From: Escherichia coli
GTDB taxonomy: Bacteria; Pseudomonadota; Gammaproteobacteria; Enterobacterales; Enterobacteriaceae
DNA: 64,000 nucleotides
Direction: 5' to 3' (one strand)
Assembly: GCF_003334255.1 (NCBI RefSeq)
Contig: NZ_QOWU01000021.1
Shown: positions 28,903 to 61,491 of the stretch, piece by piece
Position numbering within the stretch: position 1 is the first letter of the stretch
Layout: every line of letters starts with the position of its first letter
Position numbers and translations under genes: made by a program
The notes under the pieces: model-generated
Told to the model about the DNA's origin: nothing
The model's database searches: none
What the model saw: only the letters and a program-made list of their open reading frames with translations

Positions 28903-30351
28903 TTATTCTCCATGCTCATTTTTCTTCAGCTTGCGCATCAGAAGCCACATACGTACTGTCCTGACTTTTAAATCTTTATCAGAGACGGATTCCTTCACCA
29001 GGTCAGCATGATGCTGATAGCCATTAAAGAAGACGTTCAGCACAACGGCGCTAAGGGTTGCGAGCATAATGCCGCTATGTAGCAGCGGTTGCAGTACGGC
29101 CGGTAACTTAGAAAAGAAATCGTGAGAGAGCGTCGGAGTCATGCCAACGCCGAGACTGATCGCCACAATATAGAGGTTGTAACGGTTGGTGGTGTAGTTA
29201 CAGCGCGACAGAATTCGAATCCCTGTCGCCAGTACCATGCCGAACATCACTAGACCAGCGCCGCCCAGCACAAATTGCGGAATGGAGGCTACCAGCACCG
29301 CCATTTTTGGCACCATGCCAAACAGGATTAATATAATTCCCGAAGAAATACACACCCAGCGGCTATGAACGCGCGTCACGCTAACCAGGCCAACGTTTTG
29401 AGAAAATGACGTGTGGGGGAAGCTGTTAAACGTGCCGCCTATCATTGTCCCTACGCCATCGACACGCAGCCCGCGAATAATATCGTGCGAAGAGAGTTTA
29501 CGACCGACTATTTCACCCAGTGCCAGGAACATCCCCATCGACTCGATAAACACGATGATTAACACGGCAGTCATGGTCAGAATGGAAACGGGATCGAAAA
29601 TCGGCATACCAAACGACATCGGCGTAACAATCGCAAACCATGAAGCATCATGTAGCCCGGATAAATTGACTTCATTCATCATCCACGAAAGTAAAAAGCC
29701 AAATACAATCCCCAGTAATACGGCGACGTTGGACATAAATCCTTTCGCATAGCGAGTAATGAGCAAGATAAAAATTAAGACGGCAAAGGAGATACCTAAA
29801 TAAACGGGATTACCATATTGCGGATTCCCTTTACCTCCGGCGGCCCAGTCAATACCCACCTGAATGATGCTAAGCCCGATAGAAGTAATAACCACACCGG
29901 TAACCAGTGGCGGGAATAAAGGCATCAAGCGACCGATAAGTGGCGCTAATAATGTGGTGATAAAACCCGCGGCGATAGTGGCACCAAATATCCCCAGCAG
30001 GCCGATATCCGGGTTCATCCCAATGGCTATCATTGGTGTTACAGCAGCAAAGGTCACCGACATAATCACCGGCAGGCGGATCCCCATAAAGCGGCCGATA
30101 CCGATACATTGCAATAATGTGACGATCCCGCAGCAAAAGAGATCCGAGCTAATGAGCATCGCAATAGCTTCTTTTGAGAGGCCCAGTCGGTCACCAATCA
30201 TAAGAGGAACAGCGACTGCACCTGCGTACATGACAAGGACGTGTTGCAGACCGAGTATGATCAGCTTTCCTGGTGATAATATGCGGTCAACCTCATCAGT
30301 TGGGCGGTCTTGCCCAGAAGATGAGGGAAGTTGGGAATCTATGGCGCTCAT
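28903..30351 (-). CDS. uacT: uric acid transporter UacT (YgfU), NCS2/NAT family
   Basis: ORF 28903..30480 trimmed to ATG 30351 (482 aa): MSAIDSQLPSSSGQDRPTDEVDRILSPGKLIILGLQHVLVMYAGAVAVPL... Confidence 0.9.
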   Translation of the reverse strand: MSAIDSQLPSSSGQDRPTDEVDRILSPGKLIILGLQHVLVMYAGAVAVPLMIGDRLGLSKEAIAMLISSDLFCCGIVTLLQCIGIGRFMGIRLPVIMSVTFAAVTPMIAIGMNPDIGLLGIFGATIAAGFITTLLAPLIGRLMPLFPPLVTGVVITSIGLSIIQVGIDWAAGGKGNPQYGNPVYLGISFAVLIFILLITRYAKGFMSNVAVLLGIVFGFLLSWMMNEVNLSGLHDASWFAIVTPMSFGMPIFDPVSILTMTAVLIIVFIESMGMFLALGEIVGRKLSSHDIIRGLRVDGVGTMIGGTFNSFPHTSFSQNVGLVSVTRVHSRWVCISSGIILILFGMVPKMAVLVASIPQFVLGGAGLVMFGMVLATGIRILSRCNYTTNRYNLYIVAISLGVGMTPTLSHDFFSKLPAVLQPLLHSGIMLATLSAVVLNVFFNGYQHHADLVKESVSDKDLKVRTVRMWLLMRKLKKNEHGE

Positions 30352-30786
30352 CAGTGTTTCTCCTTTCGCCCGCCAGAGTAAAAAGCAACCGTTTACGTTA
30401 ATGAAACTGTCTAAACACATGCTCGTGGAGTGCCAGTTTTTGCGAGGAAGGGGAGTTAGAGACAGGAATTGCGGAGGCAATCACATAATCGTGGTTAAAC
30501 CACGAAAATGAGAAGAGAACCTGACAATGGAATTATCTGTAATTTTCTCATATTGATATTTCATTAATCATTCTGGCATGTCGCACTCTCGCATTTAATC
30601 GTTTTTATCTGGATAGCGCTCTTTTGATCGGCAATGTTGAAATAATGAAAGCGGCATAGATTGAGGGGCAATAATTTGAACTCAGTCGCAAAATTATAAT
30701 TAAAACGGTCATGCTACCTAATATATGCCCGTTTATTGCATCGCGAAATTTGAGAAGACATAACTCATTAAATGAAAGGGATGCAA

Positions 30787-32706
30787 ATGAATAAGTTTAT
30801 TGCTGCTGAAGCTGCGGAATGTATAGGCTGTCATGCTTGTGAAATTGCCTGTGCGGTGGCACACAATCAAGAAAACTGGCCGCTGAGTCACAGTGACTTT
30901 CGACCGCGTATCCACGTTGTAGGGAAAGGCCAGGCTGCGAATCCGGTGGCCTGCCATCACTGCAACAATGCCCCTTGCGTTACGGCTTGTCCGGTTAATG
31001 CTCTGACTTTCCAGTCCGATAGCGTACAACTGGACGAGCAAAAATGTATTGGTTGTAAAAGATGCGCAATCGCTTGCCCCTTTGGCGTCGTTGAGATGGT
31101 CGATACGATTGCGCAGAAATGCGACCTTTGTAACCAGCGCAGTTCCGGCACGCAAGCCTGTATTGAAGTTTGCCCAACACAGGCGTTACGACTGATGGAC
31201 GATAAAGGGTTGCAGCAGATAAAGGTGGCCCGCCAGCGCAAAACGGCAGCAGGAAAAGCGTCATCAGACGCTCAGCCATCTCGCAGTGCAGCGTTGCTCC
31301 CCGTTAACTCGCGTAAAGGCGCAGATAAAATTTCAGCGAGTGAACGGAAAACCCACTTTGGCGAAATATATTGCGGGCTGGATCCACAACAAGCGACTTA
31401 TGAGAGTGACCGCTGTGTTTATTGTGCCGAAAAAGCTAACTGCAACTGGCATTGCCCGCTGCATAACGCTATTCCGGATTACATCCGTCTGGTACAGGAA
31501 GGAAAGATTATTGAAGCGGCAGAACTTTGCCACCAGACCAGTTCCTTACCAGAAATTTGCGGCAGGGTATGTCCACAGGACCGTCTTTGTGAAGGCGCAT
31601 GTACTTTGAAAGATCACTCGGGCGCAGTCTCTATCGGTAATCTGGAACGCTACATCACCGATACCGCGCTGGCGATGGGCTGGCGTCCCGATGTCAGCAA
31701 AGTTGTTCCCCGTAGCGAAAAAGTGGCGGTGATTGGCGCTGGGCCTGCAGGGTTAGGGTGTGCTGATATTCTGGCGCGCGCAGGAGTTCAGGTCGATGTC
31801 TTTGATCGCCATCCAGAAATTGGCGGTATGCTGACTTTTGGCATTCCTCCTTTCAAACTCGATAAAACGGTATTAAGCCAGCGGCGAGAGATATTCACCG
31901 CAATGGGAATCGACTTTCATCTTAACTGTGAAATTGGCCGCGATATTACCTTTAGCGATTTAACTTCTGAATATGATGCAGTTTTCATCGGCGTGGGGAC
32001 TTACGGGATGATGCGAGCAGATCTGCCGCATGAAGATGCGCCCGGTGTCATTCAGGCTCTACCGTTCCTGACTGCCCATACCCGCCAGCTCATGGGATTG
32101 CCGGAGTCTGAAGAGTATCCGCTGACGGACGTGGAAGGTAAGCGAGTCGTGGTATTGGGCGGTGGCGATACGACAATGGATTGTTTGCGGACTTCCATCC
32201 GCCTCAATGCCGCCAGCGTGACCTGCGCGTATCGTCGTGATGAAGTCAGTATGCCGGGCTCGCGCAAAGAGGTGGTTAATGCGCGCGAGGAAGGTGTCGA
32301 GTTTCAGTTCAATGTTCAACCGCAATATATCGCTTGTGACGAAGATGGGCGTTTAACTGCGGTGGGCCTGATTCGTACCGCCATGGGTGAGCCGGGGCCG
32401 GATGGTCGCCGTCGTCCTCGTCCGGTAGCGGGTTCAGAGTTTGAATTGCCCGCCGATGTTCTGATTATGGCCTTTGGTTTCCAGGCGCATGCCATGCCGT
32501 GGTTGCAGGGCAGCGGAATTAAACTCGATAAATGGGGCCTGATTCAAACCGGTGACGTCGGGTATTTACCTACCCAGACGCATCTGAAAAAAGTCTTTGC
32601 TGGTGGTGATGCAGTTCATGGCGCGGATCTGGTTGTCACTGCAATGGCCGCAGGAAGGCAGGCGGCGCGCGATATGTTAACTCTGTTTGATACGAAGGCA
32701 TCGTGA
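30787..32706 (+). CDS. ygfT: Fe-S plus FAD/NAD(P)-binding oxidoreductase YgfT (GltD-like), implicated in formate-dependent urate metabolism
   Basis: ORF 30772..32706; N-terminal 4Fe-4S ferredoxin cysteine clusters ([23 protein letters not shown]), then GAGPAG dinucleotide-binding motif; start at ATG 30787 chosen to give 639 aa. Confidence 0.9.
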
Positions 32707-61380: not shown

Positions 61381-61474
61381 GCATGATTCACCCGTAGCGG
61401 TTGCTTCCCGCGCTTCCATAGAAATCCCCTCGATTTGAACATTTGGTTCTTATGGCAAAGATTTAGTCTAAGCA

Positions 61475-61491
61475 GGCAAGATTTACGCCAG
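61475..61491 (-). promoter_or_regulatory. candidate sigma-54 promoter upstream of xdhABC: TGGCGT-N5-TTGCC
   Basis: minus-strand TGGC (plus gcca 61487-61490) and TTGC (plus gcaa 61476-61479) at canonical -24/-12 spacing, about 85-95 bp upstream of xdhA ATG. Confidence 0.35.

Follow-up and report, generated by a model that had tools for sequence, protein, structure and literature searches.

The purine/urate catabolic cluster of an Escherichia coli strain: predicted sigma-54 control and a frameshift in the activator gene ygeV

What does the long run of purine-related genes in this part of the Escherichia coli chromosome do, and can this particular strain be expected to switch it on? The window, that is, the whole stretch of 64,000 nucleotides analysed here (contig NZ_QOWU01000021.1 of assembly GCF_003334255.1), is E. 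coli chromosome from scpA to ygeQ, and positions 28903-61491 within it are the chromosomal region from uacT to xdhA, b2866-b2888 of strain K-12. This chromosomal locus, the gene cluster by which E. coli breaks down purines and urate, is already known; the initial annotation rightly called it partly characterised and not new, and its biochemistry has now been solved. We hold it very probable, as a whole, that the window contains the urate cluster, that the cluster is controlled by sigma-54 and the activator YgeV through a shared palindrome, and that a lesion in ygeV impairs induction in this strain.

The cluster and its predicted pathway

Genes were mapped by combining the RefSeq annotation of near-identical records with a mechanical open reading frame (ORF) list and our own check of starts, stops and junctions, and protein families were assigned by NCBIfam and Pfam scans, with bit scores compared to the curated cutoffs. 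Positions 28903-48903 are identical (100%) to strains G1/2, G6/7 and G8, positions 1-25000 are near-identical to G6/7 and G8, and strain ML35 matches the whole window at 99.97% identity, with 12 substitutions and 2 indels. Of 5,426 complete E. coli genomes, about 5,155 (~95%) carry 80% or more of each half, which makes the cluster nearly core; its G+C content is 50.7% compared with 52.3% in the left flank.

Base 28903 is the end of uacT, and base 61491 lies 72 nt 5' of the xdhA ATG. The contiguity and the boundaries given in the initial annotation fit these data, whereas the length is about 32.5-32.6 kb rather than ~31 kb. By our own ORF check, the region contains 22 genes and is 92.8% coding, in the order uacT, ygfT, ygfS, ghxQ, guaD, xanQ, xdhD, ygfM, ssnA, ygfK, mocA, yqeC, yqeB, yqeA (arcC), hyuA, ygeY, ygeX (dpaL), ygeW, ygeV, xdhC, xdhB, xdhA. 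All 21 genes that had been named were found in their places by RefSeq, ORF check and NCBIfam/Pfam, with no internal stops; the 22nd, the frameshifted sigma-54 activator gene ygeV (55932-57717), had been overlooked. All enzymes exceed the curated cutoffs of their NCBIfam equivalog models.

The genes for urate reduction, ring opening and ATP formation, with lengths in amino acids (aa), are as follows.

37532-40402, minus strand: xdhD (ygfN), molybdenum (Mo)/iron-sulfur (Fe-S) subunit of urate 6-dehydroxylase (2,8-dioxopurine dehydrogenase, DOPDH), 956 aa; TIGR03313, 2122.8 bits (cutoff 1101.9)
40399-41178, minus strand: ygfM, flavin adenine dinucleotide (FAD) partner of XdhD, 259 aa; TIGR03312, 489.7 bits (cutoff 241.5)
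41229-42557, minus strand: ssnA, amidohydrolase opening the reduced six-membered ring, 442 aa; TIGR03314, 737.9 bits (cutoff 455.5)
42560-45658, minus strand: ygfK, NAD(P)H:2,8-dioxopurine oxidoreductase, 1032 aa; TIGR03315, 1778.7 bits (cutoff 835.3)
49325-50257, minus strand: yqeA (arcC), carbamate kinase, ATP-forming step, 310 aa; TIGR00746, 385.6 bits (cutoff 358.25)
50305-51690, minus strand: hyuA (ygeZ), hydantoinase opening the five-membered ring, 461 aa; TIGR02033, 675.5 bits (cutoff 393)
51743-52954, minus strand: ygeY, M20 amidase removing the second ureido group, 403 aa; TIGR03526, 721.6 bits (cutoff 321.5)
53012-54208, minus strand: ygeX (dpaL), 2,3-diaminopropionate ammonia-lyase, 398 aa; TIGR03528, 650.8 bits (cutoff 532)
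54266-55453, minus strand: ygeW, knotted carbamoyltransferase (ureido phosphorolysis to carbamoyl phosphate), 395 aa; NF005538, 825.2 bits (cutoff 453)

The components expected of a reductive urate/2,8-dioxopurine cluster are all found, namely XdhD-YgfM, YgfK beside SsnA, HyuA, YgeY and YgeX, and YgeW with carbamate kinase, and XdhD retains Glu606, the residue singled out by Li et al. 2025 (PMC12507026). In the predicted route, XdhD-YgfM would reduce urate at C6 to 2,8-dioxopurine, YgfK (flavin/Fe-S, NAD(P)H) would reduce the pyrimidine ring of this product, SsnA would open the reduced ring to ureido-hydantoin, and HyuA would open the hydantoin to 2,3-diureidopropionate. YgeW would then phosphorolyse one ureido group to carbamoyl phosphate, from which the carbamate kinase YqeA would form ATP; YgeY would hydrolyse the remaining ureido group, and YgeX would convert 2,3-diaminopropionate to pyruvate and ammonia.

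The genetics of this route were described by Liu et al. (bioRxiv 2022.07.24.501321) and Kasahara et al. (bioRxiv 2022.12.12.520169), and its full in vitro reconstitution by Li et al. 2025 (PMC12507026 / bioRxiv 2025.05.19.654654) and Liu et al. 2025 (bioRxiv 2025.04.24.650524). The steps were shown on K-12 or Nissle proteins, to which those encoded here are essentially identical. An xdhD deletion mutant builds up urate, and XdhD-YgfM makes 2,8-dioxopurine from urate in vitro (PMC12507026); YgeW and YqeA together produce ATP (bioRxiv 2025.04.24.650524); a ygeW-arcC deletion abolishes anaerobic growth on urate or adenine (bioRxiv 2022.12.12.520169); and anaerobic urate consumption via 2,8-dioxopurine and diureidopropionate has been demonstrated for K-12, Nissle and MS 200-1. 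The anaerobic purine/urate route ending in carbamoyl phosphate and ATP that the initial annotation proposed is thus established for this cluster by published genetics and reconstitution, and its remark that most enzymes lack assigned substrates has been outdated since 2025, with the exceptions of YgfT/YgfS, the chemistry of YqeB/YqeC and the signal of YgeV.

The remaining genes for purine uptake and conversion, together with the ygfT-ygfS pair, are listed here.

28903-30351, minus strand: uacT (ygfU), urate/H+ symporter, 482 aa; RefSeq WP_001295374.1 on 100% identical DNA; NCS2 family (TIGR00801, 454 bits; TIGR03173, 509.8 bits, cutoff 414)
30787-32706, plus strand: ygfT, Fe-S/flavin oxidoreductase for formate-dependent urate use, 639 aa; NF009451, 1505.9 bits (cutoff 1154)
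32706-33194, plus strand: ygfS, 4Fe-4S dicluster ferredoxin-like protein, 162 aa; RefSeq, NCBIfam and ORF check
33230-34597, minus strand: ghxQ (ygfQ), guanine/hypoxanthine transporter, 455 aa; WP_000012163.1; Pfam Xan_ur_permease, 1.8e-80
34633-35949, minus strand: guaD, guanine deaminase, 438 aa; TIGR02967, 633.6 bits (cutoff 375)
35967-37367, minus strand: xanQ (ygfO), xanthine/H+ symporter, 466 aa; WP_001280192.1; TIGR00801, 455 bits
57757-58236, minus strand: xdhC, xanthine dehydrogenase Fe-S subunit, 159 aa; NF007387, 341.9 bits (cutoff 212)
58233-59111, minus strand: xdhB, FAD subunit, 292 aa; NF007427, 532.4 bits (cutoff 287)
59122-61419, minus strand: xdhA, xanthine dehydrogenase Mo subunit, 765 aa; NF007426, 1486.4 bits (cutoff 916)

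GhxQ has no matching NCBIfam model, and its identity comes from Pfam and RefSeq. XanQ would import xanthine, GhxQ guanine and hypoxanthine, and UacT urate; GuaD would convert guanine to xanthine, and XdhABC would oxidise hypoxanthine and xanthine to urate. Channelling of xanthine to urate by XdhABC has been reported (PMC12507026).

Cofactor maturation genes lie in the middle of the cluster.

45980-46558, minus strand: mocA (ygfJ), molybdenum cofactor cytidylyltransferase, 192 aa; TIGR03310, 214.2 bits (cutoff 186.45)
46661-47431, plus strand: yqeC, selenium cofactor biosynthesis marker, 256 aa, GTG start; TIGR03172, 240.9 bits (cutoff 73)
47479-49104, plus strand: yqeB, XdhC-like and selenium-dependent Mo-cofactor maturation domains, 541 aa; TIGR03309, 417 bits (cutoff 220)

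MocA would provide the cytosine-dinucleotide form of the molybdenum cofactor, and YqeB and YqeC would mark selenium-dependent maturation of molybdenum hydroxylases. Within this very 23-gene region, Haft and Self (2008, PMC2276186) defined yqeB, yqeC and ygfJ as accessory markers for molybdenum hydroxylases that depend on selenium, and here YqeB, YqeC and YgfJ/MocA all stand beside molybdenum hydroxylase genes and score above their cutoffs, in agreement with the selenium-linked maturation genes proposed earlier for this DNA. The selenophosphate synthase gene selD is b1764 in K-12 (PMC2276186) and falls outside the window. Dependence on a labile selenium cofactor was demonstrated for the DOPDH of Clostridium sporogenes by means of a selD mutant (bioRxiv 2025.04.24.650524).

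Some of this literature counsels caution in reading the pathway into this strain. K-12, Nissle and clostridial proteins, not this strain's own, supplied the enzymology, and the enzymes for which selenium dependence was demonstrated are those of C. sporogenes rather than E. coli XdhD or XdhABC. The target of YgeW is disputed: the 3-ureido group, with 3-amino-2-ureidopropionate as the product, in one reconstitution (bioRxiv 2025.04.24.650524), and the 2-ureido group, with albizziin as the product, in the other (PMC12507026). These two 2025 papers also disagree on the cofactor of YgfK, NADPH only versus NAD(P)H.

The database names suggest a different function altogether, in which ygfK-ygfM-xdhD would encode a selenate reductase and the cluster would be primarily a selenium-metabolism locus. 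RefSeq still annotates YgfK as 'putative selenate reductase', the RefSeq/NCBIfam names include 'putative selenate reductase subunit YgfK', Se_sel_red_Mo and Se_sel_red_FAD, and an older genetic report, Bebien 2002, points the same way as far as it is represented in the citation by Haft and Self (PMC2276186). Purified YgfK, however, requires NADPH and 2,8-dioxopurine, with selenate neither needed nor stimulatory (bioRxiv 2025.04.24.650524); the in vitro activity of XdhD-YgfM and the accumulation of urate in the xdhD deletion mutant (PMC12507026) argue in the same direction; and the selenium link is one of cofactor maturation, not of selenate as a substrate (bioRxiv 2025.04.24.650524, PMC2276186). 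A selenate-reducing locus is thus highly improbable, and we did not assign the region to the YgfKMN selenate reductase, which the purified-enzyme data largely refute, but to urate catabolism.

Sigma-54 promoters and a recurrent palindrome

How is the urate cluster switched on? Sigma-54 promoter architecture had not been addressed in the initial annotation. Four -24/-12 elements in the window are letter for letter the published chromatin immunoprecipitation sequencing (ChIP-seq) sites OS29-OS32 (xdhA, ygeW, ygfK and ygfT, respectively), and a fifth element is a candidate.

30724-30740, plus strand: sigma-54 promoter of ygfT-ygfS, TATGCCCGTTTATTGCA; exact match to ChIP-seq site OS32 (Bonocora 2015)
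45732-45746, minus strand: sigma-54 promoter of ygfK-ssnA-ygfM-xdhD(-xanQ-guaD-ghxQ), TGGTGCGATTGTTGC; ChIP-seq OS31
55548-55562, minus strand: sigma-54 promoter of ygeW-ygeX-ygeY-hyuA-yqeA, TGGCACACTTATTGT; ChIP-seq OS30
61476-61490, minus strand: sigma-54 promoter of xdhABC, TGGCGTAAATCTTGC; ChIP-seq OS29
30421-30435, minus strand: candidate fifth sigma-54 promoter, of uacT, TGGCACTCCACGAGC; GG-N10-GC spacing; inferred only

A genomic SELEX (gSELEX) peak of the RpoN holoenzyme has also been reported in the ygeV/ygeW spacer. The PygfK and PygeW elements are conserved in Enterobacter, the former as CTGGTGTGATTGTTGCT. The candidate PuacT is absent from the published ChIP-seq sites; it has a counterpart, TGGCACAGCTTACGC, upstream of a uacT-like permease gene in Enterobacter sp. 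Bisph1, and uacT has been assigned to the YgeV iModulon. Positions 30421-30435 are thus a possible fifth sigma-54 promoter, which might share the enhancer at 30546 (see below) with PygfT.

Comparison of the regions upstream of the four promoters yielded a shared 13-bp palindrome, T[AC]TCA-N3-TGA[GT]A, with the following copies (unstranded).

30546-30558: TCTCATATTGATA, 166 nt upstream of the PygfT -24 element and 111 nt upstream of the candidate PuacT
45916-45928: TATCATTATGATA, 170 nt upstream of PygfK
55764-55776: TCTCATATTGATA, 202 nt upstream of PygeW, within an Enterobacter-conserved block
55862-55874: TATCATCATGATC, one mismatch, 58 nt upstream of the ygeV ATG, kept in Enterobacter
61589-61622 (61589-61601 and 61610-61622): TATCAATATGAGT and AATCAATGTGATA, one mismatch each, 21 nt apart, 99-120 nt upstream of PxdhA

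The last pair lies past base 61491, the end coordinate of the cluster in the initial annotation. The window contains five exact palindromes against 0.18 expected, all inside the cluster, and none occurs in the 31 kb that flank it; when one mismatch is allowed, six of the 11 copies fall in the four promoter-upstream spacers, 100-300 bp from a -24 element.

Because the palindrome was derived from the window's own sequences, it was tested in other genomes. A word-indexed protein search with YgeV returned near-identical E. coli proteins only and no diverged orthologues. A contig scan with YgeV retrieved mostly generic sigma-54 activators, the informative matches being those in Enterobacter sp. Bisph1 (69% identical) and in the Firmicute Sedimentibacter hydroxybenzoicus. 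At 3207-7740 of its locus, Citrobacter werkmanii encodes a YgeV-like activator (38% identity) beside a lyase resembling YgeX (51%) and an amidase resembling YgeY (32%); this is a distant paralogous module that lacks the rest of the urate cluster, and it was not used as an orthologue.

In Enterobacter sp. Bisph1, the spacers have diverged, and the palindromes, a cAMP receptor protein (CRP) site and the sigma-54 element stand out as conserved islands. All five exact palindromes in ~29 kb of this genome lie within four sigma-54-upstream spacers; for the two spacers that were tested, the expectation was 0.0044, and none of 5000 simulations reached the observed count. The Mo-enzyme operon of Enterobacter is preceded by the same two-copy layout as xdhA. 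The same palindrome pattern was found in two further proteobacterial lineages, with YgeV 53% and 45% identical, and S. hydroxybenzoicus carries three exact palindromes before a perfect sigma-54 promoter of ygeX-ygeW-ygeY-ygfK. As a background, 79 comparison loci with sigma-54 activators (852 kb) contain seven copies, four of which belong to the Sedimentibacter urate locus. The palindrome coincides with the enhancer sites predicted in Clostridia for the activator DioR (TTATCA-N3-TGATAA). From these sequence comparisons, we infer that YgeV is the probable orthologue of DioR and that the palindrome would be the enhancer of YgeV.

Several observations temper this proposal. The pairing of YgeV with the palindrome comes from position and conservation only, and the searchable literature yielded no YgeV binding data or E. 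coli YgeV sites. Two of the exact copies are intragenic, in yqeC (47306-47318) and ygeX (53920-53932), with no nearby sigma-54 element; such an element was sought downstream of the yqeC copy, as a possible driver of yqeB, and none was found. These two copies may be chance matches or internal regulatory sites. Furthermore, the bare sigma-54 consensus is not enriched across the window (85 matches versus 85.5 expected), and therefore the support for sigma-54 control consists of position and published ChIP data. Matches resembling sigma-70 promoters occur at chance level only.

The palindrome could instead be bound by a regulator other than YgeV, a global binder of AT-rich sites or Fur: it is AT-rich, as intergenic DNA generally is, and the ygfK copy TATCATTATGATA shows a loose resemblance to Fur-box half sites. 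The copies TCTCAGTTTGAGA and TCTCACAATGAGA, by contrast, have no Fur-box character. Moreover, the palindrome travels with YgeV-family genes across Proteobacteria and Firmicutes, always with this cluster, and was also arrived at independently, as the site of DioR, the orthologous activator in Clostridia, whereas the flanking 31 kb lack it and only three copies remain in the 852 kb of comparison loci once the Sedimentibacter urate locus is excluded. Binding by another regulator is accordingly a distinctly unlikely explanation, and we favour YgeV as the protein that would recognise the palindrome.

A CRP-type site stands between each sigma-54 promoter and the region far upstream of it; those before PygfK and PygeW are listed here.

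45810-45825 (unstranded): perfect CRP consensus TGTGAATGAACTCACA, between the enhancer and PygfK
55606-55621 (unstranded): CRP-like site with one mismatch, TGTGGGGTTGATCACA on the plus strand, TGTGATCAACCCCACA on the ygeW strand

The PygeW site is conserved in Enterobacter as AGTGATCCTTATCACA, and Li et al. 2025 mention a native Crp site in the ygeW promoter region (PMC12507026). Glucose repression has been reported (PMC12507026; bioRxiv 2022.12.12.520169), which fits the CRP sites.

Within the transcription units, genes are tightly packed. The ATGA-type coupled starts noted in the initial annotation are real at ygfM/xdhD (40399-40402) and xdhB/xdhC (58233-58236), as the junction check showed; in addition, the ygfT stop and the ygfS start share one base (TGATG), and the gap between ssnA and ygfK is 2 nt. 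The candidate terminator between ygeY and hyuA, also noted there, is likewise present as a sequence feature.

51701-51725, minus strand: terminator-like hairpin CCCTCCGGTTCGCCGGAGGG followed by TTTTT in the ygeY/hyuA spacer (sequence and folding)

Does this hairpin split the operon? Its stem has eight pairs, seven of them G-C; the hairpin folds at -16.6 kcal/mol (z-score -3.2 relative to shuffled sequences), and the uninterrupted T5 is found after this hairpin only among the G+C-rich intercistronic hairpins, the others lying in the ygeW/ygeX, ygeX/ygeY, ssnA/ygfM and xdhD/xanQ spacers. These properties, together with the mention of a 'ygeWXY operon' by Lamoureux et al., would suit a full intrinsic terminator that makes ygeWXY and hyuA-yqeA separate transcription units. 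On the other hand, the T-run is short and adjoins the Shine-Dalgarno sequence of hyuA, neither a sigma-54 nor an enhancer element for this gene is present in the 52-nt spacer, hyuA falls within the same YgeV iModulon, and Kasahara et al. (bioRxiv 2022.12.12.520169) treat ygeW-dpaL-ygeY-hyuA-arcC as a single operon. The comparable hairpins without T-runs in the ygeW/ygeX, ygeX/ygeY and ssnA/ygfM spacers suggest transcript-stabilising or attenuating elements rather than full stops. We consider a full terminator somewhat unlikely and favour a partial terminator or stabiliser, because ygeW-arcC is treated as one operon and hyuA is co-regulated with ygeWXY.

Elsewhere in the cluster, two identical 26-bp hairpins, GGCCGGATGGTATTACCCACCCGGCC, occur at 49113-49138 and 49293-49318, just past the convergent yqeB and yqeA genes. 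They flank paired elements resembling repetitive extragenic palindromes (REP), a layout that resembles a bidirectional terminator or a bacterial interspersed mosaic element (BIME).

The frameshift in ygeV

Is the activator of this cluster functional in the present strain? The relevant features are these.

55932-57542, plus strand: ygeV (isrR), sigma-54 enhancer-binding protein, 536 aa here versus 592 aa at full length
57523-57536, plus strand: tandem duplication CAGAGGT/CAGAGGT in ygeV, causing a frameshift with a stop at 57540-57542
57543-57717, plus strand: out-of-frame ygeV remnant, still encoding the Fis-type helix-turn-helix

In the Pfam scan, full-length YgeV (7933-9711 in the comparison record) shows weak GAF and PAS matches, the AAA+ sigma-54 domain (Sigma54_activat, 2.1e-70, residues 272-439) and HTH_8 (residues 548-587), with no receiver domain. 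A 2022 paper that renamed ygeV as isrR described an 'orphan response regulator' linked to indole signalling and to LEE (locus of enterocyte effacement) virulence genes. The truncated protein keeps the AAA+ domain with the sensor region and loses HTH_8. Among the hallmarks of a sigma-54 regulon, the -24/-12 elements and an AAA+ activator are thus present in this strain, and the C-terminal helix-turn-helix of the activator is missing. Since the duplication removes the helix-turn-helix, we predict that this strain induces its otherwise intact cluster poorly or not at all. Lower expression of ygfT in a ygeV mutant has been reported, as cited by Lamoureux et al. A substitution in YgeV, Y136C, is common to this strain and G8.

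Two considerations run counter to this prediction: the ygeV frameshift could be an assembly error, and activators of the NtrC/PspF type that lack the DNA-binding domain can act weakly from solution. For the latter reason, the truncation may lower rather than abolish induction.

If the ygeV frameshift and an extra C in actS were sequencing or assembly errors, the real strain would have an intact regulator and an ordinary cluster. Of 5,276 complete E. coli genomes in which the site is present, none shows the duplication, the 8-C run of actS occurs in only one of 4,282 genomes, homopolymer length errors being a classic assembly artefact, and the ygeV and actS indels are the only ones in 64 kb relative to ML35. 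A 7-bp tandem duplication between short repeats, however, has the form of replication slippage and is not a typical base-calling error; in the wild-type sequence, CAG-AGGT-CAG, the 3-nt repeat CAG flanks the site in just this way. The private substitutions at 822, 13428, 53401 and 58799 lie in contexts that are not error-prone, and therefore the lineage to which the window belongs has genuine private mutations; G1/2 and ML35, both close relatives, also carry independent lesions in the same segment. We judge an artefact unlikely and regard the ygeV duplication as probably a real mutation. The more specific proposal, that the sequence is an otherwise intact urate cluster whose regulation has been naturally knocked out and that YgeV is the enterobacterial orthologue of DioR acting via TTATCA-N3-TGATAA, we regard as evenly poised.

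Two of the private substitutions affect enzymes of the cluster, YgeX G270S (base 53401) and XdhB I105L (base 58799), and both are absent from all complete E. coli genomes; YgeX G270S is not regarded as damaging because the position is variable in relatives and a paralogue has Ser. Comparison with G8 revealed further private substitutions, GcvP A251V (13428) and one in scpA (822). All three private substitutions that were checked for coding effect change an amino acid. A mutation hotspot in the ygeX-actS segment was considered, and there is no clear hotspot, given the further private SNPs at 822 and 13428.

Lesions in relatives were recorded as well. In strain G1/2 (31932-33641 of its record), a deletion associated with IS1 reaches from the middle of ygeV across xdhABC into yqeK, and strain ML35 (28848-29327 of its record) has a nonsense codon in xdhC; these lesions hint at recurrent loss of the ygeV-xdh part in this clade.

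Beyond xdhA, the amidase activator gene actS (ygeR; start ~61834) has a C8 instead of a C7 run at 62045-62052, with a frameshift after ~73 codons by which the gene is split. The C8 run is shared with one complete genome, that of strain E29, and is either a real mutation or a homopolymer assembly error. An Rfam scan detected no known RNA element within the cluster; outside it, the matches were SIB RNA (ibsC antitoxin) at 4753-4903, 6S RNA (ssrS) at 5552-5735, naRNA4 at 19246-19323 and a tRNA at 62669-62739 (tRNA-Gly in the annotation of relatives).

What would this mean beyond one strain? The cluster is the gut bacterial route that removes roughly one-third of human urate, the fraction excreted into the intestine, and E. 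coli Nissle engineered to over-express it lowered serum urate in uricase-deficient mice. With this significance recognised and the pathway solved, rediscovery of the locus adds nothing new. The window contributes a natural activator truncation and a cross-phylum enhancer motif that makes YgeV testable, both of them modest additions to a known locus. The 2025 papers flag regulation as poorly understood (PMC12507026; bioRxiv 2025.04.24.650524), and E. coli strains with enzymes more than 98% identical differ in the rate of urate consumption, with regulation being suspected (bioRxiv 2025.04.24.650524). If our reading is true, lesions in ygeV or its sites could explain such strain differences, and these lesions would also point to a simple handle for building urate-lowering probiotics, of moderate interest to those who engineer such bacteria.

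Relation to known systems

The closest counterpart is the K-12 locus b2866-b2888, the 23-gene purine catabolism region of Haft and Self (2008, PMC2276186) whose biochemistry was worked out in 2023-2025. The two loci agree in gene content, order, orientation, overlaps, sigma-54 promoter sequences and protein families, and this strain differs by the ygeV duplication (592 to 536 aa), YgeX G270S and XdhB I105L.

The urate clusters of Clostridium sporogenes, C. difficile, Enterocloster bolteae and other gut anaerobes share with it an XdhD-type hydroxylase, YgfK or an equivalent, SsnA, HyuA, YgeY and YgeX, and many of them also encode YgeW with carbamate kinase and YqeB/YqeC. Gut-anaerobe urate clusters likewise combine sigma-54 and activator control with the same TTATCA-N3-TGATAA enhancer. 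Unlike the E. coli enzyme, the clostridial hydroxylase works without a YgfM FAD subunit and without NAD(P)H, and C. difficile has UacX in place of YgfK and the hydrolase UacY in place of YgeW/YqeA. Compared with the gut-anaerobe clusters, the E. coli cluster also includes three transporters, guaD, xdhABC and ygfTS.

At the level of regulation, the nearest parallel is the predicted sigma-54 regulon of DioR (Nie et al. 2019), in which an activator with PAS, AAA+ and Fis-type helix-turn-helix domains is encoded beside dpaL/ygeW/ygfK/ssnA/ygeY/yqeBC/xdh operons, and -24/-12 promoters are preceded, at a distance of 100-300 bp, by enhancers such as ATTTATCATAATGATAAGG. The study was confined to Clostridiales and gave the function of the DioR regulon as unknown.

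The chemistry follows the logic of the reductive pyrimidine (Pyd) pathway of dihydropyrimidine dehydrogenase (PydA), dihydropyrimidinase (PydB) and ureidopropionase (PydC), with ring reduction that breaks aromaticity, opening by a cyclic amidohydrolase and ureido removal, and Li et al. likened YgfK, SsnA/HyuA and YgeY to the Pyd steps (PMC12507026). In contrast to Pyd, the urate route starts from a bicyclic substrate with 6-dehydroxylation by a molybdenum enzyme, and it processes two rings and two ureido groups, one of which is conserved as carbamoyl phosphate. This last feature resembles the arginine deiminase pathway, where ureido phosphorolysis by ornithine carbamoyltransferase and carbamate kinase likewise yield substrate-level ATP (Liu et al., bioRxiv 2025.04.24.650524); the arginine deiminase pathway uses citrulline, whereas YgeW is a knotted carbamoyltransferase acting on 2,3-diureidopropionate.

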